Source of the DNA: an uncultured Solibacteraceae bacterium
Lineage (GTDB): Bacteria; Acidobacteriota; Terriglobia; 20CM-2-55-15
DNA: 64,000 bases
NCBI GenBank assembly: GCA_964633285.1
Contig: CAZWGA010000001.1
Location: forward strand, 60,950-124,949
Direction: 5' to 3'
This document shows, piece by piece, positions 10,350-62,429 of this stretch. Position numbers and translations under genes: made by a program. The notes below the pieces were generated by a model that worked only from the letters and a program-made list of their open reading frames with translations, had not been told where the DNA came from and did no database searches. Positions within the stretch are counted from its first letter, which is position 1. Every line of letters begins with the position of its first letter.

Positions 10350-10417
10350 AAGGCGAAAAGCTTAGCATAAGATCGGCGTGCGCATTTGGTTTGAAAACCA
10401 TCAACGGGAGTACAGAA

Positions 10418-10969
10418 ATGAAGAAAACTTTGGTTTTGCTTCTCCCTCTGGCGGTGCTGTCGATCGCAATTTCGGGCTACGCTCAGCTTCAGGTTCCCGG
10501 CGCCGACAACACACCAAAACTGGGAGAAAAACCGCCGGATTTCGAGTTGCCGAAGGGCCTTGGGCCGCAGGCAGGCACACTCGGAATGAAGGATTTTGCC
10601 GGCAAGAAAAAGGTGCTTCTCGCCTTTTTCCCCGCGGCATTCACCGCCGGTTGAACGCGTGAATTTACCGAGTTCGGTAATAACCAACAAAAGTTCGATG
10701 AAATGAATATTGAAGTGATCGGCATCTCGAGAGACCTGGCCGCGTCACAACAGAAGTTCAAGGAGACCGTCAACGCGAAGAATACCTTCCTCAGCGATCC
10801 TGAAGCGAAAGTCATTGCCGCATACGGAGCGTTGAACGCCGCGAAAATCTCAAGCCGTTATTACTTCCTGATCGACGAAAACGGAAAACTCATCTGGAAG
10901 AGCGTTAACAATCAGCTCATCCCGGTCGAGAAGCTGGTTTCCGATCTGGCAGAGGTTGTGAAAAAATAG
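10418..10969 (+). CDS. Secreted peroxiredoxin (AhpC/TSA/Bcp-like) with an in-frame UGA at the peroxidatic Cys position; candidate selenoprotein (alternatively a pseudogene)
   Basis: ORFs 10391..10654 and 10703..10969 are in the same frame and separated only by TGA 10652-10654. The joined protein reads ..VLLAFFPAAFTAG[U]TREFTEF..IEVIGIS.., matching the Prx active-site motif FTxxCxTE with Sec in place of Cys. It has a signal peptide and GGGAG RBS with ATG at 10418. A hairpin lies 10 nt downstream of the UGA (10665-10680). Confidence 0.5.
10665..10680 (+). promoter_or_regulatory. Candidate bacterial SECIS-like hairpin downstream of UGA
   Basis: UUACCG-AGUU-CGGUAA: a 6-bp stem with a G/U-containing tetraloop, starting 10 nt after the UGA at 10652. 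Confidence 0.25.
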
Positions 10970-15766: not shown

Positions 15767-16897
15767 CTACTGTCTGCGGATGACGATCTTGCCTAATGAG
15801 GTGTGCAGCGTGATGCTGTTTCCGCCGCCGTTCAATAAAGATTGGGAGTGAGTCGGCGCATAGAACCGATTCGGTATGAGTCCTTGAGGGGGCCGGGCTA
15901 CCGCCGCGAGACCATTCATCGGAAAATCTGAAACGATTTGTTGCTGCAATGCCGGACGCTGAATACTGGCATCGATTGTTGCTTTCATGCGTTGAGGAAC
16001 ATAAACGGTAATGTCGCCGATGCCGGCCTGAAGATCCATGTGCAGGTCGCCATCAATGTTCTCCGGGACAAGATGAACAACAATTTTGCCGTTACCCGTC
16101 GATGCTTCGACCCAGGCGGCAGCGCTGTCGAGAAGGATATCGCCGGATTCGGTATGGCCCTGGAAGGGACCGCGTACCCGCCGGCTCGTGATATTACCGC
16201 CGGAGGTTTTGGCGTTGATCCGGGCAGCATCGCCGATTGAAATATCTCCGGCATTCGTTGTTGCCTGAACTTCGCCGGCCCTCGTGATCGTGATGGTTCG
16301 GCCTCCGACGGCTATGACTGAGCCGCCGACAATGCCTGCTCGAATCTGTCCGGCGGTCGTATGGAATTCCGCTTTGCCGCCGACATCGCCGACTTCGAGA
16401 GTTCCACCCTGACTGCGGAGTTCGGCGTTGCCGCCGATGTTTCCCGCCTTGATCACGCCGCCCTGTGTGCTGATCGAGGCATCGCCTTTGATCTGGCCGG
16501 TTGTGATCGATCCTCCTGCCGTCCGCGCGACAACAGTTCCATTGACGTCACCGGTTGTGATTCCGCCGGAAAGCGTTACCAGATCGAGATCCACGGTCTT
16601 CGGTGTCACGATTTTCCATACGATCGATCCGCGAATCTGAGCAGGATCCGGAGTATTGCTTGTGTATTCGGCATGATCCTTCAAGCAGGTTTCCTGAAGT
16701 TGAATCAGGTTGCTGTCGACCAGGACGTCGATGAATGACTCACGCGAAGTCGTATCCACCTGCAAATCACCGAGAGGAGCTCGAACGACAACCGTAGCTC
16801 CATCGGTTACGGGACACTTCGCAAAAGCACCGGGAATATTAAAAGAAAGAAGGACAACGGCCAGAGCGACGCAGATCCCGCGGGCGGCTGGAATCAT
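15767..16897 (-). CDS. DUF4097-type putative adhesin/beta-repeat protein, co-operonic with the anti-sigma factor
   Basis: Signal peptide. Repetitive G-rich beta-strand repeats (..GGSITTGQIKGDASISTQGGVIKAGNIGGNAELRSQGG..). Start overlaps the anti-sigma stop (ATGA). Confidence 0.65.
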   Translation of the reverse strand: MIPAARGICVALAVVLLSFNIPGAFAKCPVTDGATVVVRAPLGDLQVDTTSRESFIDVLVDSNLIQLQETCLKDHAEYTSNTPDPAQIRGSIVWKIVTPKTVDLDLVTLSGGITTGDVNGTVVARTAGGSITTGQIKGDASISTQGGVIKAGNIGGNAELRSQGGTLEVGDVGGKAEFHTTAGQIRAGIVGGSVIAVGGRTITITRAGEVQATTNAGDISIGDAARINAKTSGGNITSRRVRGPFQGHTESGDILLDSAAAWVEASTGNGKIVVHLVPENIDGDLHMDLQAGIGDITVYVPQRMKATIDASIQRPALQQQIVSDFPMNGLAAVARPPQGLIPNRFYAPTHSQSLLNGGGNSITLHTSLGKIVIRRQ

Positions 16898-34717: not shown

Positions 34718-35244
34718 TTCGCTAGCTCCCTGATTCTTGCTTTAAATGCATCGAGCGGTACCTTCTGAACGCTCGGCGTCTCGGACATGCGTCCCGTTTT
34801 CGGATCGACGATGGTCGCTCCCGCTGAATTCGAGATCGCAAGGTTGTCGACGAGATCGTACTTTCCCTGGCCGAGGCCCACGATATCGAACGTTCCGTTT
34901 GATTGATTCTGGAGGAAGACAATGACGCGGTCGCCCGCCTTGAACTGTGGCGTTCCGGAGACAGTCAAATTCAGCGCGCCTAGTTTCCCGCCAGGCTGTC
35001 TGATGAGCAGCGCCCGCCGTGGCGCTCCCTTGAAAGATTCATCCACGCGAATCGACGCATAAGTAAAGATGAGGTCACTCTCCCAGCGCGCTTCGACGGA
35101 CTCGACAGTGCCTTGCACTACCGAGTCTGACTTGGAGACCATCTCAGGCAATTCCATCTTTCTCACGCTCGATGCGAGCGCCGGCACGGCAAGGACAAGC
35201 GCCGTCAGAATCATGAAGCTTCGATTACGTATTAGTGTGCTCAT
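34714..35244 (-). CDS. Hypothetical secreted protein
   Basis: Signal peptide (MILTALVLAVPALASS). Coupled by ATGA overlaps to both neighbours. Confidence 0.5.
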   Translation of the reverse strand: MSTLIRNRSFMILTALVLAVPALASSVRKMELPEMVSKSDSVVQGTVESVEARWESDLIFTYASIRVDESFKGAPRRALLIRQPGGKLGALNLTVSGTPQFKAGDRVIVFLQNQSNGTFDIVGLGQGKYDLVDNLAISNSAGATIVDPKTGRMSETPSVQKVPLDAFKARIRELAK

Positions 35245-37349
35245 CGGATGAATACTCCTCCCGTCAATATGGACGTATCCAGATTGGAATTCGTCACGAT
35301 GACATTTCTTGGCCCGAGCGCCGCAGTTGCGTCCACGGTGACTTTCACAAGAACGAAGTTGTCCTGGAAGACGTAGTTACTCACCGTTACGCCGCCGCCG
35401 CTCACGGAAACCGTCGTCCCGGCTGCTGAGCCCAAACCCGTACCGACAATTCCCATTAATTTGGATGTTCCTCGCGGAAGATCACCGCTGGAAACGTTAA
35501 ACGCAATTTCCGTTGCGGCCAGCTCGACAATTCCGATTCTCGTCACGCTCAATCCCGCAACGGCTGGTGCAACGTAGATGTCGGCGTTGGCCGTCGTTGC
35601 TCCGCCGGTCACCGTTACCGTGCTCTGTACGAGCGCGCCGGTTGACGTCACCTGAAGAATCTTCGAACTTGAACTTTGTCCTCCGGTCTGCACGAACACG
35701 GGTCCGGAAATTGCGGCGGAAGGAACAGTAACGGTCAATGATGTTGACGATCCGGCGGATGGTGTTGCGTTTACTGTGCCGTTGGCGCTGGTAAAGACCA
35801 CGGTGTTGTTCGCGAAAGTCGAATCGAACCCCGAGCCCGCCAGCGTGATCGCGGAACCACGGTTCTGGCTTGACGGCGAAACGGAAGTCAACACCAGCGG
35901 CTGAACCGCGACATTCGACGTCAACGTCAGCGACAGCGTGCTTGCATTCTGTTTGAAGAATCGCAGACTGCCGCTTGCGCTCTGTCCCGAACTGCCGCTG
36001 TAAAGCACGAACTGCGTTGTATAACCGCCGCCGTTGACAATGTGGGGAAAATCGAACTCCGCGGTTGACGCTGCCGTCGCTTCATTGGACGGCGGTGTGG
36101 TGGTAATCAGAAAATCACCGCGTTCGTTCGTGCGCGTGCGCAATCCGACAACGGAAATGCCGGAAGACGTGGTCGTAATTCGAACCAGCCCCGTGAAAGG
36201 CAGAGTCAGGTTCGGAAACAACTCATTCAGAAACTTTGCCGTCTGGCCCTGGCCTGCAACGGTGATGGAGTTCGTGAGTCCCGTTGAAGCTCCACTGGCA
36301 TTGAACGCTTCGAACGTGACCGTCGCCTGCGAACTCGATCCATTCGCCACGGCGATTCCGGTTTGAATGGATGACGAACCCTCCGCATAAACGCGGAAAG
36401 CCGTTCCGAGATTCGTGGGCACGCCCGCCTGCGTTACAGTGACGCTCCCCGGCTTGTAGGAAAACACAACGAGCGGTACGGGAGTGCTGCTCCCGGATGA
36501 GGGAGCGATGGAAACGGATCCGCTGCTTGTGTTCGCGCCCGCGCCGCTGGTCGTGAGTTTGAACGATCCTCTTCGCGGGAGCGAATAACTGAAACTGGCG
36601 CTGCTTTGTCCGTTCGCAGTGAGTGGGGATGCCGCGCCGGCGCCATTGCGGAACTGGATGGTTCCCGTCATTGCCGTGTCGGTCGGATTCACAAGAATCA
36701 CCGAAGTCGTCCATCCGCCCCCGTCGGCAAAATGCGGCAGGAGAACTGAAGAAGTGCCTGCGGCAACGGACGTGTCGATGACCGGCAGCGTTGTGATCAG
36801 GAAATCGCCGCGTTCGTTAGTGAAGCCCTGCAGCGCCACCACCGAAATCGGTACATTGCTGCTGAACGAAAACGTGCCCTGAATGCCCGTTCCACCGTTG
36901 TATGGAGCCTGGTCCAGAAACTCTGCTACCTGGCCTCCAGCGGGGATCGTACGCGACCCCGACCCGAAATCGGTTCCATCGAATTTCGTAAACGAAAACG
37001 TCACGGTTGCCGCCGTGGAATTGGGGTTGGCGATCGCCAGGCCGATATCCAGCCCGCCGTTGACTTCCGCATAAATGCGGCCCGTGCGCAACAGCGGCGA
37101 GGCAGGAACACCCGCTTCCGCGACAAGCACATTGTTCGTTCGAAAACCGAAAATGGCGACCCCCGAAGGAGTGGTGGACCCGCTGTCGGCGACAATCCTC
37201 GCATATCCCACATTCAAATCGCCCGCGCCATCCGTAGACAGGGAATTCGCGCTGCGATCGGTGAGGGAATAGGAGCGAGTTGCCGCCTGGCTCCACGCCA
37301 GCCTGGGTAATGCCAGGACAAGCATGAAAAACGCAATTCTTACTTTCAT
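35241..37349 (-). CDS. Large secreted protein with internal about-100-aa repeats and C-terminal IPT/TIG-like beta-sandwich domains
   Basis: Signal peptide MKVRIAFFMLVLALPRLAWSQ. Motif ..TNERGDFLITT.. repeated, ..FP/LPHFADGGGWTT.. repeated. Ser/Thr/Gly-rich C-terminal Ig-like segments. Confidence 0.6.
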   Translation of the reverse strand: MKVRIAFFMLVLALPRLAWSQAATRSYSLTDRSANSLSTDGAGDLNVGYARIVADSGSTTPSGVAIFGFRTNNVLVAEAGVPASPLLRTGRIYAEVNGGLDIGLAIANPNSTAATVTFSFTKFDGTDFGSGSRTIPAGGQVAEFLDQAPYNGGTGIQGTFSFSSNVPISVVALQGFTNERGDFLITTLPVIDTSVAAGTSSVLLPHFADGGGWTTSVILVNPTDTAMTGTIQFRNGAGAASPLTANGQSSASFSYSLPRRGSFKLTTSGAGANTSSGSVSIAPSSGSSTPVPLVVFSYKPGSVTVTQAGVPTNLGTAFRVYAEGSSSIQTGIAVANGSSSQATVTFEAFNASGASTGLTNSITVAGQGQTAKFLNELFPNLTLPFTGLVRITTTSSGISVVGLRTRTNERGDFLITTTPPSNEATAASTAEFDFPHIVNGGGYTTQFVLYSGSSGQSASGSLRFFKQNASTLSLTLTSNVAVQPLVLTSVSPSSQNRGSAITLAGSGFDSTFANNTVVFTSANGTVNATPSAGSSTSLTVTVPSAAISGPVFVQTGGQSSSSKILQVTSTGALVQSTVTVTGGATTANADIYVAPAVAGLSVTRIGIVELAATEIAFNVSSGDLPRGTSKLMGIVGTGLGSAAGTTVSVSGGGVTVSNYVFQDNFVLVKVTVDATAALGPRNVIVTNSNLDTSILTGGVFIR

Positions 37350-37573: not shown

Positions 37574-39172
37574 TTATTTAGGCGCCATGACAATCCACGT
37601 TACGGTGTCATTTGCTTTGATTCCTGTGATTGTGAAGGAGTTTTGTGTAACGGAAGTCGCTCTGGTGGCGATACTGTTCGTTTGGTCCTGGATGATGACG
37701 TGGGGGACTTGTGAAAACGTCGTTGCGAATCTGACGATGCAGTCATCATTTTCACCGTGGATTTGACCTGAGAAATCTGTGGACCCGGTCTCAACGACGG
37801 CCTTATCACCACAGCTCGAGGCATCAGGAGTCGGAGTCAACTGCGGGTCTTTCTTACCGCCATAATGCACGAACTGGCCTCGAAGCGGATCGAGTACGGT
37901 TGCGGCCGCGGTGCCGCCAATCTCAGTAGGCGAAACGGGAACGGTGTTCGTGATAAACGCGCCGCCCAGAACCGTCAATTGCGCAGCGTTTGCGTCACTG
38001 ATCTTGAAATTTGTTGTATTGCCTTCCATATGAGGGAAAAGGAAGTCATAGCCGCCGGAGCTTTGCGGATTCGGATCTATATAGACTCCCACGTCGCACG
38101 ATTCGATTGTAGGTTTCACGAAAACGTTGCTGGAAATGGCTCCGTTCCAGCCTGCCGAGCTGATGCTGATTCCCACACGGCCCGCGCGCGGACCGTCACA
38201 AATCGCTTCAAGGTTGTCAAACTCATTCGACGTAACAAATGAACCGGTTCCATTCACAGCTATCGCCAGCGGCGTTTTGGCTATTGGAATATTGAACGCG
38301 AATCGGCATAAGGTAATCGGACTGGAGCCGGAAGTGGAAATCAGCTTGATTCCCGATGCGAAACCGTTCGCCGCGATTTCCATCGTTGACCTGGTGCATG
38401 CTTCGATTTGCACTCCCGTCGAGGGCTCCGACAAGAGGGTGCCACTTTTCACCAGACTCATTCCCCGGATGACGTTTGCCTGCGACCGGTAAATGCGAAT
38501 CGCTGTGCCTGAACCGGTGTATTTCAGTACTGCGTTTCCGCCGCAGAAGTCATAGACGGCACCCCCGTTGAGGTCAAGTTGCGATGCGAAGTAATAAGTA
38601 TGGCCACATGGCCATGCGACGGAATGTCTGGTGTTGATGGCGGCTTGCATTGAGGAGGTATTGTCGGTCGTTGGATCGTCTGCGGTGATCCCCCACCATT
38701 GGGGATACACCCAGCCGCTGAACTCGCGTCCCAATGTGGCTATGCCGGAGCCTGTGAATAACTGTTGAGTAGGTAACGCGATCGGTTCTGATCTTGAAGT
38801 GAATGTCAGTCCGGAGTTAATCGACAGGCGGGCTCCTCCACTGAAATCCAGCTTGACGTTCGAGGGTACGGTGGCATCAGCCGAGAAAACATAAGTCGTG
38901 GCGCCCAGCAAGACCGTCACCGATTTTGTGACTTCCTTAAAAGGATCGGACGCGATGGCCTCCGATTCCCTGAAGCCTCTGGCGTCCGCGATTCCGCCGG
39001 AGGGGGGCAAAGCCGCAATGCAGGCAACGATTTTCGCTCCCGCATCCGTTCCCGCAAATTCGTCGCAACGCCCCACCATGTCGTTCTGTTGAGCTTGAGT
39101 TCGTATGGGAGATAGCAACTCGGTAAGGGTGATCAGTACGGCCAGAGTTCGTCCCCAATGTGCTTTTTTCAT
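37574..39172 (-). CDS. Secreted right-handed beta-helix protein of the pectate-lyase superfamily (putative glycoside hydrolase / polysaccharide depolymerase)
   Basis: Signal peptide. ..WWGITADDPTTDNTSSMQAAIN.. matches the Pectate_lyase_3 N-terminal motif. ATG 39172 with GAGAGG RBS. Confidence 0.55.
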   Translation of the reverse strand: MKKAHWGRTLAVLITLTELLSPIRTQAQQNDMVGRCDEFAGTDAGAKIVACIAALPPSGGIADARGFRESEAIASDPFKEVTKSVTVLLGATTYVFSADATVPSNVKLDFSGGARLSINSGLTFTSRSEPIALPTQQLFTGSGIATLGREFSGWVYPQWWGITADDPTTDNTSSMQAAINTRHSVAWPCGHTYYFASQLDLNGGAVYDFCGGNAVLKYTGSGTAIRIYRSQANVIRGMSLVKSGTLLSEPSTGVQIEACTRSTMEIAANGFASGIKLISTSGSSPITLCRFAFNIPIAKTPLAIAVNGTGSFVTSNEFDNLEAICDGPRAGRVGISISSAGWNGAISSNVFVKPTIESCDVGVYIDPNPQSSGGYDFLFPHMEGNTTNFKISDANAAQLTVLGGAFITNTVPVSPTEIGGTAAATVLDPLRGQFVHYGGKKDPQLTPTPDASSCGDKAVVETGSTDFSGQIHGENDDCIVRFATTFSQVPHVIIQDQTNSIATRATSVTQNSFTITGIKANDTVTWIVMAPK

Positions 39173-39446
39173 TTTCAGCAAACCTCTCGGTCCTGATTTC
39201 AACAGACCTTCCACGAATTCTACCCCCCTGAGACGTGCCTAAACGAAACGTAATCCGATGATGTTGCGAGCATTTATGGCCATCGGAAGGGAGTTTCTTC
39301 ATTGACACCATATCGGCTCCCTTCGTAATCTTCTTGGGTTCTCTTGTCTGCAAACAGCCAGTTGTGCGAAATGACGTAATTCTCTCCTTTTTTCTTTGTC
39401 GCATTCCGATTGTGGAGCATTATTTCGTGCAGTGGATTCTAATAAC

Positions 39447-39502: not shown

Positions 39503-40483
39503 GTGAAAACTTTTGATCAGTTCAAGATCGGCTTTGATACGAGAGACCGTCAAACGGTCCAGCGTTATTGGGACGAGATCTTTTCAACACAGAAATGGAC
39601 GGAAGGTAAGTTCACCAGGCTGTTTGAAGAAAAGTGGTCGGAATGGAACGGGGCTCCTGGAGTTGCGATGTCCAGTTGGGCCGGTGGTGCATTGACCGCC
39701 CTCGAATTCTTCAACCTTCGTGGAAAGAAAGTTTTGTGTCCTACGAATACGTTCATGGCCACACCATTTTCAGTTCTAAAAGTGGGTGGGGAGGTCGTTT
39801 TCGGCGACTGCAACAAAGAAGATTTGTGCCTCAGTTTGGACTCCGTAAGAAGGGCGGTTGAGGATCAAGGCGTGGCGGCGGTCTGGCTGGTTCATATCGG
39901 CGGCCACATCGCGTTCGATACTCCGAAGATCGCCGATTTCTGCCGGCAAAAAGGAGTGATCCTCCTGGAGGATTGCGCCCACGCGCATGGCGCGAAATGG
40001 CAGGGACGAAAAGCAGGAACCTGGGGTGACTGCGGCGTGTACTCGTTCTACGCCACGAAATCCATTTCGACCGGCGAGGGTGGAATGCTGGTATCCAACA
40101 ATCCTGCCCTGATTGAGTACGCTCAGCGATACAGGAACTACGGGAAGATGGATTACAAAGTCGAAGGGCTGAACTATCGGATGTCGGAATTCACTGCCGC
40201 CCTCGGTGTTGTTCAGATTGACCGGATGGAAGAAATTACAGCCTGGAAAAACATGATTGCCCGGGAATACCTGGATCCGAAATACAAACGCAGAGTCATT
40301 CTTCCGGACGGCATGACTTCAGGTTTCTACAAGTACATTGTCTTTGAACCCATTGAAAAATCCACGGGCAAGGTTTACGACACCCTGTGTCATTCGATTC
40401 TCGGCGCCCCCGGATCGTTCCCCAACTCGGAATGGGTCGCGCAAAATCACTGGTGTGTTCCTTTGTATTACAACCCGTCATAA
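39503..40483 (+). CDS. DegT/DnrJ/EryC1/StrS-family PLP-dependent sugar aminotransferase/dehydratase
   Basis: GTG start with GAGGG RBS. ..CAHAHGA.., ..SFYATKSISTGEGGML.. (PLP-Lys region). Confidence 0.8.
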   Translation: MKTFDQFKIGFDTRDRQTVQRYWDEIFSTQKWTEGKFTRLFEEKWSEWNGAPGVAMSSWAGGALTALEFFNLRGKKVLCPTNTFMATPFSVLKVGGEVVFGDCNKEDLCLSLDSVRRAVEDQGVAAVWLVHIGGHIAFDTPKIADFCRQKGVILLEDCAHAHGAKWQGRKAGTWGDCGVYSFYATKSISTGEGGMLVSNNPALIEYAQRYRNYGKMDYKVEGLNYRMSEFTAALGVVQIDRMEEITAWKNMIAREYLDPKYKRRVILPDGMTSGFYKYIVFEPIEKSTGKVYDTLCHSILGAPGSFPNSEWVAQNHWCVPLYYNPS

Positions 40484-43125: not shown

Positions 43126-44106
43126 ATGCGAACGATTCTTCTTTTTGCCGAGGCAGATTCAGAAATCGGATTTGGCCACCTCGGCGAGATTCGCGCCATC
43201 AGCCGGGCGCTGACCGCGCGAGACGATATTCGGACGCGCGTTTTCGCCGTTGGAACTCCGTGCGACACCGGCAGCGATATGGCTTGCGACTGGCTTACGG
43301 ATTCCACGGGCGTCATCCAGGTCATGAACTCGATCGAAGCTGACGCCACAGTGTGGAGCTTTCGGCGGCCACTGGCTCCGGGTGTATGGGAGGCCCTCGA
43401 GACTTCGTGCGCATTCAAGGTGTGGCTGGCGGACATGCCCGAACGGATTCCCCATGTGGATTTGTTCATCATGCCCACTCTGGTGAAGGAATGGCAGCGG
43501 CATCCGCATGAAGCAAAGAGTGCCTTGCTGGGTCCCAGCTATATGACGCTCGATCCGGTTTTTGAAGCCGAGCCTGAGCCAATCCATGGCCGTACCCGCG
43601 ATGTGTTACTCAGTCTGGGAGGAGCGGACCGATCGCACGCAACGCTTCGCGTCCTTCGTGCGTTGGAGGGACTCTCCGCAACAGTGGTCATCGGTCCGGG
43701 TTTCAATCACGATCAGGAAGTCAGGCGGCTTGCGAGTGCATTAAGAATCAATGTGGAGGAAAAGCCTTCGGGGTTGAGGCCGCTTCTGATCTGCCATCGA
43801 ATTGTGATTTCGGCCGGCGGAAACACGCTCTGTGAAGCCGCGGCTTCCGGCACTCCGGCACTTGTCGCATGGGAAGATCCTCACGAACGCGCCGCCGGCA
43901 CCGCTCTTGAAGAAGCAGGCGGGGCCCTTGTTCTCGGGCAAGGGATCGCTTTGCAGCCTGATAAAGTCAGAGAGGAAATCGATCGCGCGCTCCGGACGCC
44001 GGGCCTGTTGGATTCCATGGCTCGTGCTGGGCGAAGATTGATCGACGGCAAGGGAGCGCATCGAGTTGTCGATGCCATTCGTGAACGAATGATGGCGGCC
44101 GTTTGA
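43126..44106 (+). CDS. PseG-like UDP-sugar hydrolase (GT28 C-terminal-like; pseudaminic acid pathway)
   Basis: ..ADSEIGFGHLGEIRAISRAL.. N-terminus typical of PseG. C-terminal GT-B-like half. Confidence 0.6.
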   Translation: MRTILLFAEADSEIGFGHLGEIRAISRALTARDDIRTRVFAVGTPCDTGSDMACDWLTDSTGVIQVMNSIEADATVWSFRRPLAPGVWEALETSCAFKVWLADMPERIPHVDLFIMPTLVKEWQRHPHEAKSALLGPSYMTLDPVFEAEPEPIHGRTRDVLLSLGGADRSHATLRVLRALEGLSATVVIGPGFNHDQEVRRLASALRINVEEKPSGLRPLLICHRIVISAGGNTLCEAAASGTPALVAWEDPHERAAGTALEEAGGALVLGQGIALQPDKVREEIDRALRTPGLLDSMARAGRRLIDGKGAHRVVDAIRERMMAAV

Positions 44107-48859: not shown

Positions 48860-50665
48860 GTGTTTCTTGCAACAACAGCCCTTACCGACTTCTGGGATAA
48901 AGAGAGCAGCGGAGTTTTTCTTGGGGAATGGTGTAAGCGCCGGGACCGACGCGCCGATTGGGACGGGTTGAACTATACGACGTTGCAATGCATCTGGAAC
49001 GATCGTGTTCGTTACTATGAAGCAGCAGCTTACGTCACAAGTTGTTGCGAGCGAATACTGGAACGGCTCGCCAGATATCTCAACGTTGTCCACGGTCTCG
49101 ATAACAATATCCGATACTGGAATATTCTGATTGGCGCGTGGCTGATTCATTACGTGCACTGCATCTACGATCGATACGTCCACCTGTCGCAGGCCTTTTC
49201 ACTCTTTCCTGAACTCGAAACGATCGTTCTGGACAAACGCGATTTCAAGACCCCTGCAAAAACTCATGAAGCAATACTCTCTTTGTGCGAAGACCCTTAT
49301 AACCTTCAAGTCTGTTCACAACTCATAGAAGAAATGGGGTATCGCTTTCCCACAAAACGGTTCTCGGCGAAACTCGCTGAGCCAAACGCGGAAACTCAAC
49401 AGCCGACATTACGAGCGCATCTTCGCAACGCTGTTAGGGCTGCGAATTCGACGCTCACAAGAAGCCTTTCCTGGAAAAAGCGGGGAGTCGTTTGCGATTT
49501 GGATTGGCCAACACGAGATGTCGGCGAACTGGTTCGTCAGAGCCGTTTCAATATTCTCTCGCTGGAGAAACGCACGGCCCAATGGAAGATTCCCGCTGCA
49601 ACTTTCGACAACAAACGTGAGGGACTCCGAAACTTGAGCGCCGAGACCACTCTGGAGCGTCTGTGCGTTAACCTGCTTCCCCAGAATTTTCCTACGCTCT
49701 ATCTGGAGGGGTTCAAAGAAGGCCGGGAGCAAGGCATGCAGGCGTATTCCCAGCAATTTCCAAAATTCGCGATGTCGGCCGTGGGCTGGTCCTACAACGA
49801 GGAATTCAAGTTTTGGGCAGCAGAGGCGTCACAACATGGGACGCAGCTTATCGGTGTGCAGCACGGCGGCGGCTATGGCGTGTTTCGTTTTGCTCCGTAC
49901 GAAATTCACGAGAACAAATTGACGGACTTCTATGCCACGTGGGGATGGGGTGTTGACGGTTCTTCCAAATACGTGCCGCTTCCAAATCCGAAGCTTGCGA
50001 TCGTTCGCCGGGCACGAACGGACGCCGCGTCGAGTGGCAAGATTCTCTTTGCGGCACACGATGAGCCTCGTTATCTGTTCCGGTTTCACTCCGCGCCGGT
50101 TGGGCCCCAGGCCTCCGAACTTGCGGATCTGGAAATCCGGTTTCTGAAATCCATGCCCGCCACAGTCCTTTCGCGTATTGTTTTCAGGAAGTATCCCGGT
50201 GATTTTGGAAATGCTGTTCGTGAATACATCGGAAACAAATTTCCTGATTTGAAATGGGACCAGCAGTCCTCGTTCTATGCGAGCGTTGCGAATTGCGAAC
50301 TGGTCGTGTTCGATCACTGCGGAACAGGGTTCCTGGAGTCCCTGGCCGCGAATGTTCCCACTCTGATTTTTTGGGATCCCGAGCGATGGGAACTTCGGGG
50401 TGAGGCCGTGCCTTATTTTGAACTGCTCCATCAGGCAGGCATCCTCCACTTTACGCCGGAATCGGCAGCCTCCGCGCTCGCAGAGATCTCCTCGAATATC
50501 GGTTCTTGGTGGCTGACCCCGGCGGTTCAGGAAGCCCGGCGCCGGTTCGTGAAACAGTACGCGCTTGAAAGCGACGGTTGGGCCGGTCTTTGGCTTCAGA
50601 GTATTCGCGGCTGCGTTTCTGACCAACCTCCGGCAACAGCCAAATACAGGCGGGAATCGATATGA
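48860..50665 (+). CDS. Large hypothetical protein (about 600 aa), possibly a LIC12162-type putative transferase of nonulosonic-acid loci
   Basis: 601-aa ORF with good coding composition in the middle of the sugar locus. Family assignment is from memory only. Confidence 0.5.
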   Translation: MFLATTALTDFWDKESSGVFLGEWCKRRDRRADWDGLNYTTLQCIWNDRVRYYEAAAYVTSCCERILERLARYLNVVHGLDNNIRYWNILIGAWLIHYVHCIYDRYVHLSQAFSLFPELETIVLDKRDFKTPAKTHEAILSLCEDPYNLQVCSQLIEEMGYRFPTKRFSAKLAEPNAETQQPTLRAHLRNAVRAANSTLTRSLSWKKRGVVCDLDWPTRDVGELVRQSRFNILSLEKRTAQWKIPAATFDNKREGLRNLSAETTLERLCVNLLPQNFPTLYLEGFKEGREQGMQAYSQQFPKFAMSAVGWSYNEEFKFWAAEASQHGTQLIGVQHGGGYGVFRFAPYEIHENKLTDFYATWGWGVDGSSKYVPLPNPKLAIVRRARTDAASSGKILFAAHDEPRYLFRFHSAPVGPQASELADLEIRFLKSMPATVLSRIVFRKYPGDFGNAVREYIGNKFPDLKWDQQSSFYASVANCELVVFDHCGTGFLESLAANVPTLIFWDPERWELRGEAVPYFELLHQAGILHFTPESAASALAEISSNIGSWWLTPAVQEARRRFVKQYALESDGWAGLWLQSIRGCVSDQPPATAKYRRESI

Positions 50666-58487: not shown

Positions 58488-59111
58488 TTGTTCCGATTTT
58501 TTTCACGAATCCGAAAAGAATTCTATTTGTGGATCGATGGAATCGCCGCACAACTGCCGGGCAATGCCGGAATTATCCTGCGGCGAATCTGGGTAGCGAA
58601 ACGCGTCGCGAAACTCGGCGCCGGAGCGACGATCGAAACCGGAACGTTTTTTCGATGCGGTAACAATATTTCGCTTGGCGAGTCCTTCACGTTGTTACGC
58701 GGATCGATTCTGGGCGCGTGTGATGGAAAATTGACGATCGGCGATCGCGTCTCCATCAATTCGGGCAGTGTTGTTGACGCATCGGCCGGGGGAAATATCA
58801 CCATTCACAACGATGCCTTGATTGGACCCAACGTTGTGATTCGCGCGAGCAATCATGCTTTCGATGCCGTGAACGTTCCCATGAATCGGCAAGGCCATAC
58901 CGGCGGCCGGATCATCATCGAAGAAGATGTGTGGATTGGCGCAAACGCCACTATTGTTCCCGGCGTGACCATTGGCGCGCACGCCGTTGTGGGCGCCGGT
59001 GCGGTTGTTACTCAAAATGTAGAACCGTGGACCATTGTAGGCGGTGTTCCCGCGAGGTTGATAAGAAACCGCCGGCCCGCCGCTTCCATCGTTGGTAATT
59101 CCGCTCTATGA
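58488..59111 (+). CDS. Hexapeptide-repeat acetyltransferase
   Basis: LbH repeats ..IGANATIVPGVTIGAHAVVGAGAVV... Confidence 0.7.
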   Translation: MFRFFSRIRKEFYLWIDGIAAQLPGNAGIILRRIWVAKRVAKLGAGATIETGTFFRCGNNISLGESFTLLRGSILGACDGKLTIGDRVSINSGSVVDASAGGNITIHNDALIGPNVVIRASNHAFDAVNVPMNRQGHTGGRIIIEEDVWIGANATIVPGVTIGAHAVVGAGAVVTQNVEPWTIVGGVPARLIRNRRPAASIVGNSAL

Positions 59112-61009
59112 GTTCCATCAGCATCGTTTCGCGTTCCCGGTGCGGCCGTCTCAATCCTGATTCAAAGGACACCGTGTGGATTTACGCGGGGACCGATTGC
59201 CTTTTCTATTGGAAAGTTTCGAATGGCGTGTTCAGGAACGTGAAGTGTGCGATCGAGCCGGGAGATTTCCAGACGTTCGTCACAAGGCAGCGCGCCGATT
59301 TTGTTCGCTGGTCCAACCGGCACGTATCGGCCTTCTCTGCACAGAACTGGCTTAGTGATCCCTTCGATAGAAATCCCGAGAACAATCTCTTTCTTTATTT
59401 CTGCTGGCTGGCATGGATTCAGGAATGGTTGGCGAATCATTCCAGCCGCCTCATTGTTGTCGTCGACGATTGCGCGATGGCGGCGGCTGTGGCCAGGCTT
59501 TCTCGAAGGAATCAAATCGATCTCGTAACCGATTACGGTGATCTTGTTTTCGATTGTGTGAAACGGCTGATGAGGGTCCTCGCTGTTTCGGGTTTTCGGC
59601 TCGTCGAATGGATTTACCGAAGTGTTCTTGCAAAAACAATACTGCGAGCGCCAACGCTATCTTCAAAGCCTGCGATTCTGATTACGACATATTTTCTGGG
59701 TAACGGTTGCATTGATTCCAACGGTGTCTTCAGGGATCGTTACCTGCCGGGGTTGCTGGAACTTTACGAACGCAATGGATTCGATGTCATCGTAGCGCCC
59801 ACGTTTTATGACATTCCGTTGAAGCATTTTCCACGAATCTACACCTTCATGGCACGTTCGAAAACGAAGTTTATCGTTGCCGAACAATTCGTTCCGGTCC
59901 GAGGCCAGATCGCCGCTCTGCTGTCGTGGTTGGCTCTGGTATGGCGAACGTTGATTCCCGGCGGTCCTTCGAGATTTATCCGGAATGAGGATCTGTACGG
60001 GACTGTTCGGGATCTGGCGCTCAGGAATACGCTCATCGCCTTTCCATTTCTCGTCAGTGGCCAGGTTCCCCGGTTCGCTGCAAAACGGGGCATGAAGCTG
60101 GAAGCGATGATTCAATGGTACGAGAATCAGCCGAAGGACAAGTATGTGCTGCTGAATTTTCGCCGGTGTTACCCAAACGCTATCAGCATCGCAGCGCAGA
60201 GTTACTGCATTTGCGGCAATTACCTCAGTTTGCCGATTACACGGGAAGAGCGAGCTGCCGGCATCGCGCCCGATCAGATTTGGATTCCCGGCGCTGCGAC
60301 GATGAAGATTCACGCCGCTTATGATGGAGAAGCGATTTCGAAGTATCGTCCGATGCCGGCACTGCGCTATCAACAGATATTTGAAACCGCGAGAAAGCGG
60401 CAGCATCAGAACAGCGGAGGAAAATTCACAATGACGATTTTGCTTCCGCATTCTGTGCCGGATTCGATTTACATGCTGTGGTGCGCCGCCGCCGCTATAA
60501 CTCACGTGCAGGAGCACGGCGGTGAAGTCCGAATCAAAACGCATCCTATTGTCACGATGCATGACATTCAACAAAGTGCGAATTCGAACGGAGTGAGGCT
60601 TGATGGGGCGATGAAGTGGGTGGATCTGCCGGTCGAGCAACTCCTCGTCGATACGGATTTGGTTCTGACCGGCGGGAGTTCCGCTGCGCTGGAAGCCGTT
60701 GCATGCGGTGTCCCGGCGCTGGTCGTCGGGTTCGTCGCCGGGTTGGATCTGAATCCTCTGGAAGCTGCGGACAAGAGGCTTTGGAGTCTCGTCTACGATC
60801 AGGAGCAAGCAGTCCGGGCAGTGCAGAGGTGGATGTCGGCAGATGCCATGCCGTCCAAAGAAAGGCTTGAGGTAGCGCGGGAGATTTTGAAAACTCACTT
60901 TGTCGAGTTACGCAACGAAGATGAAAAACTGTTTTGCCGCATGCTCGGGAATCATGCGATGACGGATGCCGGGAGTTCCAGTGTGAATCTGGTTCACGCG
61001 GCTAACTGA
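59108..61009 (+). CDS. Large hypothetical protein (633 aa), possible GT-B-like glycosyltransferase / capsule-polysaccharide synthesis protein
   Basis: C-terminal ..LVLTGGSSAALEAVACGVPALVV.. resembles a GT-B nucleotide-sugar-binding half. No confident family. Confidence 0.5.
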   Translation: MSSISIVSRSRCGRLNPDSKDTVWIYAGTDCLFYWKVSNGVFRNVKCAIEPGDFQTFVTRQRADFVRWSNRHVSAFSAQNWLSDPFDRNPENNLFLYFCWLAWIQEWLANHSSRLIVVVDDCAMAAAVARLSRRNQIDLVTDYGDLVFDCVKRLMRVLAVSGFRLVEWIYRSVLAKTILRAPTLSSKPAILITTYFLGNGCIDSNGVFRDRYLPGLLELYERNGFDVIVAPTFYDIPLKHFPRIYTFMARSKTKFIVAEQFVPVRGQIAALLSWLALVWRTLIPGGPSRFIRNEDLYGTVRDLALRNTLIAFPFLVSGQVPRFAAKRGMKLEAMIQWYENQPKDKYVLLNFRRCYPNAISIAAQSYCICGNYLSLPITREERAAGIAPDQIWIPGAATMKIHAAYDGEAISKYRPMPALRYQQIFETARKRQHQNSGGKFTMTILLPHSVPDSIYMLWCAAAAITHVQEHGGEVRIKTHPIVTMHDIQQSANSNGVRLDGAMKWVDLPVEQLLVDTDLVLTGGSSAALEAVACGVPALVVGFVAGLDLNPLEAADKRLWSLVYDQEQAVRAVQRWMSADAMPSKERLEVAREILKTHFVELRNEDEKLFCRMLGNHAMTDAGSSSVNLVHAAN

Positions 61010-61022
61010 GGAAAGATCGACA

Positions 61023-62429
61023 ATGGGTAAATGGGCTTCTCCTTTCAAGACAGTAGGCGGCATCGGCTCCGCCGGCGGTGGTGTGCCGCACATCCTGAAC
61101 GCGACTCAACGTGTGCACGCCGTCATCGCGGGTGCATTGTTCTACGCGGTCGGCAATTTCGGATTCTTGAACATTTTCGGAATTCGCCGCGAAGCGCAAG
61201 CGGTGTTGTTTGTGCTGTTGATCCTGCTGCTTCCGAGGTTGTCCGGTGTTGGCAGAGTCCGACGCGAGCCGTTGTTGTACCTGACTCTTGTTTTCTTTAT
61301 GGCGCGGCTATTTTTGCGGGACTGGACGATTATCGATATTTTCGATTCGCTGACATCCATAGGGATCATTATCGTGATTTTCGGAATCGACATGAGAAAG
61401 AGCGAGGCCATCTTAAGGATGGTCATCTTGTTCTCGGCCGTATTCTCCACGATGGTGATTGTTCAGGCGGTCATTATCTGGTTCAATCCTTCGTTGATTG
61501 CGTTTGTCAACTACCGTCCGTACTCCTCGATGTCTTCCGACGATCTCATTCAACTCCAGCACCCCATTGAGTATCTGGGATTTACGACAGGAGACTACAT
61601 ACGTGTGCTCGGGCGAGACTTCGTCCGTTTCAATAGCTTTGCTTCCGAACCCTCGGTTCTCATTTATTCATTCCTTGTGCCTGGCATACTTGCTCTGACT
61701 TTCAAAAACCATCTCGTCCGGCTCCTGAGTATTCCGATTCTGTTCTTTGCCGTCGTTCTCGCTGCAGCCGGCACGGCCTGGTTGTCCCTCGCGGTAGGGA
61801 TGGCGGTGTTTCCGTTCTTCTATCTCTTCAAAAACAGACCCCGCTTTCTTCATTTCCTTCCGTACATTGCTATTGCGCTGTTTCTCTTTTTTGTGATTAA
61901 CGTGGACAGCCGGCAATTCATGGCCGACTTTGATACATTTTTCCAGTCCTTTTCGGAGATTCACTCGGACCCGTCGGAAAAATATAGTTCGGGGATCATA
62001 CGTATTGGCTCGATCAGGGATACTCTGGATCTCGTCCTCGAGTATCCGCTCGGAGTCCCATTCAGCATCGGGCGAATCGGCGGCTTGCTCCTGACAGCCG
62101 GATTTGACGGCGGTTTTCTGGGAGTCATTGTCTGTCTCATCCTGTCCTACAGAATGTTTCGTGTATTGACGGCAGCGGTTCTCGGGAGTTCCGGAATCAC
62201 TCGAATCGCCATGTCGCTCGTGTACGGAATCATGATTCAGGTACTCTGCTTTTCCGACTATGGCTGGACAACTTTCAGCGGAATCATGATGCTGGCTCTG
62301 CTTTTGACGCGAGCCGAATACCTCGTCGCGCGGAATGAGTGGGAAATGTCTCGCGGGCCTGTCTTCCGTCCAGTGCCTGTGCCGGTTGCAGTCTCTGCCG
62401 ATCCGGCTTATTTGATCGAGCAACGATGA
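61023..62429 (+). CDS. Polytopic membrane protein, Wzy/O-antigen-ligase-like candidate polymerase
   Basis: More than 10 TM helices and a large loop. Lower GC than its neighbours. Placed with the flippase and sugar genes. Confidence 0.5.
   Translation: MGKWASPFKTVGGIGSAGGGVPHILNATQRVHAVIAGALFYAVGNFGFLNIFGIRREAQAVLFVLLILLLPRLSGVGRVRREPLLYLTLVFFMARLFLRDWTIIDIFDSLTSIGIIIVIFGIDMRKSEAILRMVILFSAVFSTMVIVQAVIIWFNPSLIAFVNYRPYSSMSSDDLIQLQHPIEYLGFTTGDYIRVLGRDFVRFNSFASEPSVLIYSFLVPGILALTFKNHLVRLLSIPILFFAVVLAAAGTAWLSLAVGMAVFPFFYLFKNRPRFLHFLPYIAIALFLFFVINVDSRQFMADFDTFFQSFSEIHSDPSEKYSSGIIRIGSIRDTLDLVLEYPLGVPFSIGRIGGLLLTAGFDGGFLGVIVCLILSYRMFRVLTAAVLGSSGITRIAMSLVYGIMIQVLCFSDYGWTTFSGIMMLALLLTRAEYLVARNEWEMSRGPVFRPVPVPVAVSADPAYLIEQR

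Follow-up and report, generated by a model that had tools for sequence, protein, structure and literature searches.

The 64-kb stretch of DNA analyzed here (hereafter the window), from contig CAZWGA010000001.1 of an uncultured Solibacteraceae bacterium, carries at positions 10418–10969 what is very probably one functional gene encoding a BCP/PrxQ-like, probably exported peroxiredoxin (Prx), in which the in-frame UGA codon at 10652–10654 would specify selenocysteine (Sec) as the peroxidatic residue. An earlier note on the same DNA had argued that Sec recoding was likelier than a random nonsense mutation, a judgment supported by the comparison of 96 related loci from independent assemblies (80 of them contributed by a metagenome scan): 62 have TGA at this codon, and within the window's own clade purifying selection is evident on both sides of it. 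The features of the locus, by position in the window, are:

10406–10410, forward strand: Shine-Dalgarno-like GGGAG, 7 nt 5′ of the ATG, read directly from the sequence
10418–10969, forward strand: predicted complete selenoprotein peroxiredoxin coding sequence (CDS), 183 codons including Sec79, with the stop TAG at 10967–10969
10418–10483, forward strand: signal peptide of the Sec type predicted from the sequence pattern, MKKTLVLLLPLAVLSIAISGYA, cleaved ahead of QLQVPG
10631–10654, forward strand: putative active-site motif P72-A-A-F-T76-A-G-U79 (PxxxTxxU), aligned to AFYPAAFTQVC of PDB entry 2ywn
10652–10654, forward strand: UGA codon, probably read as Sec, at the peroxidatic residue; the same column is TGA or TGC/TGT in relatives
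10661–10693, forward strand: codons +3 to +13 after the UGA, in which synonymous variation is suppressed
10665–10680, forward strand: hairpin resembling a selenocysteine insertion sequence (SECIS), stem 10665–10670/10675–10680 (UUACCG/CGGUAA), apical loop AGUU at 10671–10674
10856–10858, forward strand: codon of the predicted catalytic Arg147, motif SSR-YYFLID, aligning with the Arg of lakRavFvID in 2ywn

When re-read and translated, the frame that opens at ATG 10418 contained one internal stop only, the TGA at 10652–10654, just as the earlier note had described it. The read-through translation begins MKKTLVLLLPLAVLSIAISGYAQLQVPG and continues through VLLAFFPAAFTAG, the stop and TREFTEFGNNQ, the residues flanking the stop being LLAFFPAAFTAG on the one side and TREFTEFG on the other. 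A mechanical list of open reading frames (ORFs) gives two same-frame pieces, 10391–10654 (TTG start) and 10703–10969 (ATG start), and the 16 codons between the TGA and the ATG at 10703 are all open. Contigs fetched for the closest related genes (loci are given labels of the form L001) show the same arrangement: the orthologues are colinear with the window CDS along its full length, and their contigs have an ORF of 76–81 aa (mostly 78 aa) abutting a second, usually of 104 aa. The expectation that annotation pipelines would report such a gene as fragments proved correct, with JGI and ENA records listing the 78-aa and 104-aa pieces.

The codon at the Sec79 column is TGA in 62 of the 96 loci (the window and 61 others), TGC in 27 and TGT in 7, and the stop aligns with the Cys of 2ywn and 3hjp, which places it at the catalytic position as had been proposed. 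The closest proteins in a collection of 5.8 billion are 104-residue fragments, 77–86% identical, that start one codon past the equivalent stop; one further close match ends just before the equivalent stop, and full-length relatives at 52–54% identity have Cys at this position. Every close orthologue found has the same TGA (syntenic sequences, 77–86% identical, from Acidobacteria “gp5” metagenome-assembled genomes, MAGs, and soil metagenomes). At the DNA level, TGA is present in L001–L006 and L009–L013 and TGC in L007, which is syntenic with the window, and L008, such that among these first loci compared all split genes have TGA and the Cys forms have TGC. A scan of one genome per species recovered the TGA form in four gp5 MAGs (AA68, AA66, AA64, and 13_1_20CM_2_55_15), together with a TGA homologue, 36% identical, in a Terriglobia MAG (L013). 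Relatives with TGC at this codon together with other inactivating lesions, the pattern named earlier as evidence against recoding, were not what we found: the close relatives have TGA and are intact on both sides of it.

In a neighbor-joining tree, the window sequence falls inside a monophyletic TGA clade whose sister is a Cys clade, and a second large soil clade has TGA and Cys forms mixed. Parsimony on the family tree requires at least eight switches between Sec and Cys, and repeated interchange of this kind is the usual pattern for selenoprotein peroxiredoxins (PMC1794560). The second soil clade is the larger of the two (many of L037–L095, e.g., L038:10208 and L077:6727) and consists of signal-peptide peroxiredoxins, 35–42% identical, with the motif FFPAAFTGG-U-TKExxAYQ(A/S)G and TGA at the catalytic codon; these proteins have a conserved C-terminal Cys (..AACSRL), unlike the Cys-free window protein.

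Selection on the frame was measured in seven gp5-clade sequences, for which synonymous sites are near saturation (pS 0.4–0.8). The ratio of nonsynonymous to synonymous substitution rates (dN/dS) was 0.02–0.09 upstream of the TGA, in the mature N-terminal part, and 0.04–0.12 downstream, and neither frameshifts nor further stops were found in the TGA orthologues. Low dN/dS on both sides at near-saturated synonymous sites argues that the gene is not a pseudogene. Within codons +3 to +13, the fraction of synonymous differences falls to 0.07–0.17, vs. 0.4–0.6 in the rest of the gene, and this trough, which lies over the hairpin, marks an apparent constraint at the RNA level overlapping the coding sequence.

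The small hairpin that the earlier note had placed 10 nt downstream of the UGA is present at that distance, its stem beginning after 10 nt and its loop after 16 nt. The bacterial SECIS (bSECIS) model calls for an apical loop of 3–9 nt, a stem of 4–16 bp, a UGA-to-loop distance of 16–37 nt and a minimum free energy of −7.5 kcal/mol or lower, with a G at loop position 1 or 2 and, as a rule, G or U next to it on the 3′ side (PMC13188914). The window hairpin conforms to the geometry, with a 4-nt loop, G at position 2 followed by U, a 6-bp stem and 16-nt spacing. In a 10-sequence alignment, 93% of hairpin cells are paired and compensatory changes occur at three of the six pairs, and no slid register of the alignment comes close in pairing. 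In the Terriglobia homologue, at 36% identity, the stem sequence is another one (UCUCUG-GGUU-CAGAGA), yet the length of the stem, the spacer and the size of the loop are unchanged. Across the family, a geometry-fitting hairpin with ΔG of −3 or lower was found in 51 of 58 distinct TGA-type sequences vs. 3 of 33 Cys-type sequences. In the second soil clade the hairpin is another one, (N)UACC-AGGCU-GGUA(N), which sits about 22 nt past the UGA and covaries too; the Cys-type members interspersed in that clade are without it.

For comparison with protein families, Cys was put in place of the stop in the 183-residue read-through product. Residues 36–160 match Pfam AhpC-TSA (PF00578) with 95.3 bits against a cut-off of 26 (E 3e-27), and the match covers profile positions 2–123 of 124, running across the TGA. 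Because both this and the PDB alignments run across the junction, neither ORF constitutes a complete thioredoxin fold. Residue 79, encoded by the TGA, aligns with the peroxidatic Cys of the archaeal BCP-type peroxiredoxins 2ywn and 3hjp; F75, T76, G78, and C/U79 are invariant in one of our alignments (A2), and R147 is invariant in both A2 and a further one (A3). The sequence after the Sec position is U-T-R-E, with no Cys at +3, so the motif is TxxU and the UxxC/UxxU redox motif is absent. By NCBIfam cut-offs the window protein is BCP-like but an equivalog of neither Bcp nor PrxU: it scored 63.3 bits against the cut-off of 140 for the BCP/PrxQ equivalog NF006960, and 45.1 bits against 270 for the PrxU equivalog NF040737.

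At the N-terminus, a basic n-region (MKK) is followed by a hydrophobic stretch some 15 residues long and by GYA (a small-x-A c-region) before QL. A ribosome-binding site and a signal peptide had both been called in the earlier note, and both calls held, the former (GGGAG) by direct reading and the latter as a prediction from sequence pattern. Since this signal-peptide architecture is kept in orthologues and sister clades, though the sequence drifts, the enzyme is probably exported and periplasmic. The read-through product contains no Cys residues at all, hence no resolving Cys such as defines the 2-Cys peroxiredoxins, and a resolving Cys is likewise absent from all 15 complete Sec-type products, the window's included, that lack Cys beyond the signal-peptide region. 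With no other Cys in the protein, it would be a “1-Sec” enzyme needing an external thiol reductant.

A second line of evidence comes from selenophosphate synthetase. Searching the window and L001–L095 (about 0.76 Mb) by tblastn with E. coli SelA, SelB, and SelD as queries returned one selD only, in L025. On that contig a Cys-type Prx orthologue (10–555, 51% identical) has a Cys-type selD (624–1661) directly after it in the same orientation, an adjacency that hints at a functional or regulatory link of the Prx clade to selenium metabolism. Used as a query, L025 SelD retrieved many soil SelDs, a large share of them 314–322 aa long, i.e., without the N-terminus. One cluster, PYS07173.1, is encoded on QHXC01000028.1 of MAG GCA_003222815.1 (gp5 AA64), which also holds a TGA-Prx orthologue on QHXC01000043.1; a second SelD cluster member could be placed in bulk metagenome assemblies only, not in the gp5 MAGs. 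In frame and 5′ of the called start, the gp5 AA64 selD (L100:1208–2233) reads MRLTELAKSAG, TGA and then AGKLGPADLEFALKK. This TGA (…KSAG-U-AGKLGP…) aligns with the catalytic Cys of both E. coli and L025 SelD, and 3′ of it lies a hairpin, GGUCC-GGC-GGACC, whose loop begins 17 nt past the UGA. A selD with an in-frame TGA at the catalytic Cys and a hairpin also occurs in L098, L103, L108, and L109, the set as a whole coming from gp5 Acidobacteria and a complete 6.4-Mb genome, and public records of the TGA-containing selD hold only the downstream part (314–327 aa). The lineage thus has selenophosphate synthetase, and with it a second gene family bearing the signature of a UGA at the catalytic Cys followed by a hairpin.

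The earlier note had proposed, among other checks, looking for a SECIS-like structure and for the sel genes, and those of its checks that were run all pointed toward Sec recoding. The loop, the position of the G, the spacing and the covariation agree with a SECIS element, with a borderline energy, and a UGA-containing selD was found in a related MAG with the TGA-Prx; neither the window nor the related loci that make up the 0.76 Mb yielded selA, selB, or tRNA-Sec. Several results weigh against the Sec reading. Taken by itself, the hairpin has a weak fold, −5.5 to −6.3 kcal/mol against the bSECIS threshold, and the 45 nt from the UGA reach −8.0 kcal/mol by way of a lower stem that lacks conservation. 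An 81-nt fold is no better than shuffled sequences (z −0.61), part of the stem (ACCG/CGGU) is dictated by the T-E-F-G coding sequence, and no Rfam SECIS family matched either the whole window at gathering thresholds or positions 10600–10760 at E ≤ 10. The sole Rfam match in these searches, DsrA, was set aside as a chance match. The absence of selA, selB, and tRNA-Sec from the loci searched counts on the same side, and selD was seen in a related MAG (Prx 77% identical) rather than in the window's own genome, a connection that depends on MAG binning. Since single-sequence thermodynamics are not significant, the case for the hairpin rests on the comparative evidence.

The searches for the remaining machinery can be set out briefly. 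ARAGORN, and Rfam at gathering thresholds, found no tRNA genes and no tRNA-Sec in the window, and Pfam scans found no SelA, SelB, or SelD among the approximately 57 window ORFs scanned. A pair of 633 and 468 aa at 59108–62429, which by size could have been selB and selA, proved to be a glycosyltransferase-like protein and an O-antigen ligase. ARAGORN likewise reported no tRNA-Sec in L001–L013 and L016–L095. No sel genes flank the TGA homologue from Terriglobia (L013), and in the complete 6.4-Mb genome, a related one, selD has parB on one side and the ATP synthase operon on the other, without selA or selB in the vicinity. On L052, a contig with a TGA-type Prx, ARAGORN called an unusual 84-nt “tRNA-Gly(ccc)” at 1078–1161 with its anticodon at position 38; GC-rich sequence could have produced a false call here, or the feature could be an allo-tRNA like those reported from Acidobacteria (PMC5389517).

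Other explanations of the interrupted frame were weighed against the same data. The locus could be a pseudogene, a Cys-peroxiredoxin struck by a nonsense mutation whose two ORFs are decaying remnants, and the splitting of the gene by gene callers and the lack of sel genes among the window's Pfam matches would both suit it; this is nevertheless hardly credible, given an identical TGA in at least 13 distinct gp5-clade sequences as well as across the wider set of loci, orthologues drawn from independent JGI, ENA, and NCBI assemblies rather than copies of one artefact, and a frame that is intact, has low dN/dS and shows synonymous constraint right after the TGA. There is only a very slight chance that two products are made, a secreted 78-residue peptide ending at the UGA and an independently translated C-terminal part. 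The codon after the TGA is GTG in L001–L006, where gene callers take it as a start, but it is ACG in the window, L009–L012, and L016–L020, and the window's next ATG is a Leu codon in L002 and L003; the lack of a conserved start 3′ of the TGA excludes two independently translated products. Moreover, neither half would form a full thioredoxin fold, and the C-terminal piece has neither signal peptide nor catalytic residue. Genome-wide reassignment of UGA to sense (code 4 or code 25) has nothing in its favor except the in-frame TGA itself, and its probability is vanishingly small: TGA is the normal stop of 23 of the 45 Pfam-supported genes in the window, with full-length domain matches, which excludes a reassigned code, and the ORFs under table 11 are long and intact. 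Pairs of ORFs joined by TGA were also listed for the whole window, but the list held too much noise to point to other selenoproteins.

The UGA might instead be recoded to Cys or another residue by a suppressor tRNA, possibly one that relies on this hairpin together with a SelB-like factor. Candidates for this role would be selC*-type tRNA-Cys or the acidobacterial allo-tRNAs: allo-tRNAs in Acidobacteria may be nonsense suppressors, and tRNA-Cys species that mimic tRNA-Sec may insert Cys as opal suppressors (Mukai et al., PMC5389517). Neither tRNA-Sec nor SelA turned up in the window and related loci, and the odd 84-nt tRNA call lies on a contig with a TGA-Prx, both of which fit such a scheme. 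The selC* tRNA-Cys, however, has been reported in other phyla and not in Acidobacteria (PMC5389517), some Acidobacteriota do use Sec (PMC12013277, PMC1794560), and the frequent Sec/Cys interchange in the tree is what selenoproteins usually show. We regard suppression as unlikely chiefly because the lineage keeps a selD that itself has UGA at the catalytic Cys, an arrangement sensible only with selenium use. A related and equally unlikely idea draws on the allo-tRNAs of Acidobacteria, which are unusual and resemble tRNA-Sec: the hairpin-marked UGAs of Prx and selD would not always be read as Sec, a SelB-dependent or suppressor tRNA inserting Cys or another residue instead, for example under selenium scarcity, in which case the same gene would give rise to a Sec enzyme at some times and a Cys enzyme at others. 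In a milder version, these proteins may represent an undescribed exported “1-Sec” subfamily, free of a resolving Cys, with its own periplasmic reductant and abundant in soil.

Returning to the favored reading, an intact gene encoding a Sec-peroxiredoxin, we infer dependence on SelB and tRNA-Sec, export, and peroxidase chemistry from the sequence. During translation, SelB with Sec-tRNA(Sec) would bind the hairpin at 10665–10680, and Sec would be inserted at the UGA in place of termination. The 183-residue precursor would be exported via its N-terminal signal peptide, and in the periplasm the U79 selenolate, activated by T76 and R147, would reduce peroxides and be converted to the selenenic acid, with an external thiol partner recycling the “1-Sec” enzyme.

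The prototype of the bacterial SECIS element is that of fdhF. The window hairpin is similar to such elements in being a stem-loop directly 3′ of the UGA and inside the ORF, with a small loop and G then U at positions 2–3, and differs in that it has a stem of only 6 bp, a low stability (about −6 kcal/mol), spacing at the lower limit and no conserved lower stem. Among proteins of known structure, the best matches are BCP/PrxQ enzymes (Sulfolobus Bcp 2ywn/4g2e, 3hjp, and 3drn; E 1e-17 to 5e-16; E. coli Bcp falls under NF006960), with which the AF(Y/F)PAAFT..C motif, the GIS.D motif and the catalytic Arg all align. The window protein differs from them in its N-terminal signal peptide and, as predicted, in having Sec for Cys, and from the 2-Cys BCPs in lacking a second Cys five residues downstream. 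With the Sec-peroxiredoxins it has in common the AhpC/TSA fold, the UGA in place of the peroxidatic Cys codon in PxxxTxxC, a SECIS-like hairpin directly downstream inside the CDS, widespread Cys homologues, and repeated Cys/Sec switches. The verified member of that family, which we take to be PrxU of Eubacterium acidaminophilum, stands apart from the window protein, which is not a PrxU equivalog, has a signal peptide, lacks a resolving Cys, and falls in a separate Sec clade with a Cys clade as its sister. Sec-peroxiredoxins with the TxxU motif (COG1225/PF00578) are an established family (PMC1088965, PMC1794560, PMC5029168): 12 genomes and five Cys-to-Sec events were reported in 2006 (PMC1794560) and 78 organisms in 2016 (PMC5029168), and a 2026 review lists the family as experimentally verified (PMC13188914). 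The host group here, Acidobacteria subgroup 5, is not named in the prokaryotic selenoproteome surveys cited, including those of Zhang and Gladyshev. The Prx-like thiol:disulfide oxidoreductase selenoproteins are similar in their thioredoxin fold, PF00578 match and often extracytoplasmic location, and differ in having UxxC/UxxU where the window has TxxU followed by T-R-E (PMC1088965, PMC13188914).

The gene's surroundings are conserved as well: the window and the ortholog contigs have in common a class-III aminotransferase and NUDIX on the upstream side and Nnr/YjeF, TsaE, and M16 peptidases on the downstream side. The gap that separates the Prx stop from the start of nnr/yjeF holds an inverted repeat whose 38-nt arms match perfectly across a 21-nt spacer (10984–11021/11043–11080), the only one of such quality within the window, and the 130 nt 3′ of the Prx stop have a fold energy of −78 kcal/mol. 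Equally long, near-perfect hairpins occupy the same position in the orthologous L001, L002, L003, L009, L010, L016, and L017; they are mostly unlike in sequence among loci, although some have the motifs AATTCGGGG.C and CCTAAATCACC in common. The repeat, conserved in position and variable in sequence, could be a terminator, an insulator or a palindromic mobile element.

Elsewhere in the window, Pfam scans outlined a large same-strand cluster at 39503–63202 for polysaccharide or nonulosonic-acid-type biosynthesis, with DegT aminotransferases, epimerases/dehydratases, WbqC, NeuB, cytidylyltransferases, a PIG-L deacetylase, a methyltransferase, three radical-SAM proteins (two with SPASM domains and one B12-binding), a flippase, and a Wzy-like ligase. 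Several long ORFs had no Pfam match at E ≤ 1e-4: 35241–37349 (reverse strand, 702 aa), 37574–39214 (reverse, 546 aa), 48860–50665 (forward, 601 aa), 15767–16897 (reverse, 376 aa), and 43126–44106 (forward, 326 aa).

Knowledge that peroxiredoxins can contain Sec goes back about two decades, so the finding is not a conceptual advance, and its particulars (the signal peptide, the missing resolving Cys, the gp5 acidobacterial host, and the mis-annotation as fragments) are a modest addition. It would correct a systematic annotation error, by which the Prx is recorded as 78-aa and 104-aa fragments and selD as an N-terminally truncated protein of 314 aa, and would assign Sec decoding as a trait to Acidobacteria subgroup 5, a lineage that is abundant in soil but uncultured. 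Signal-peptide Sec-peroxiredoxins would also be common in soil metagenomes, judging from the share of TGA-type genes among the related loci, which bears on how soil selenium availability may shape oxidative-stress defense.

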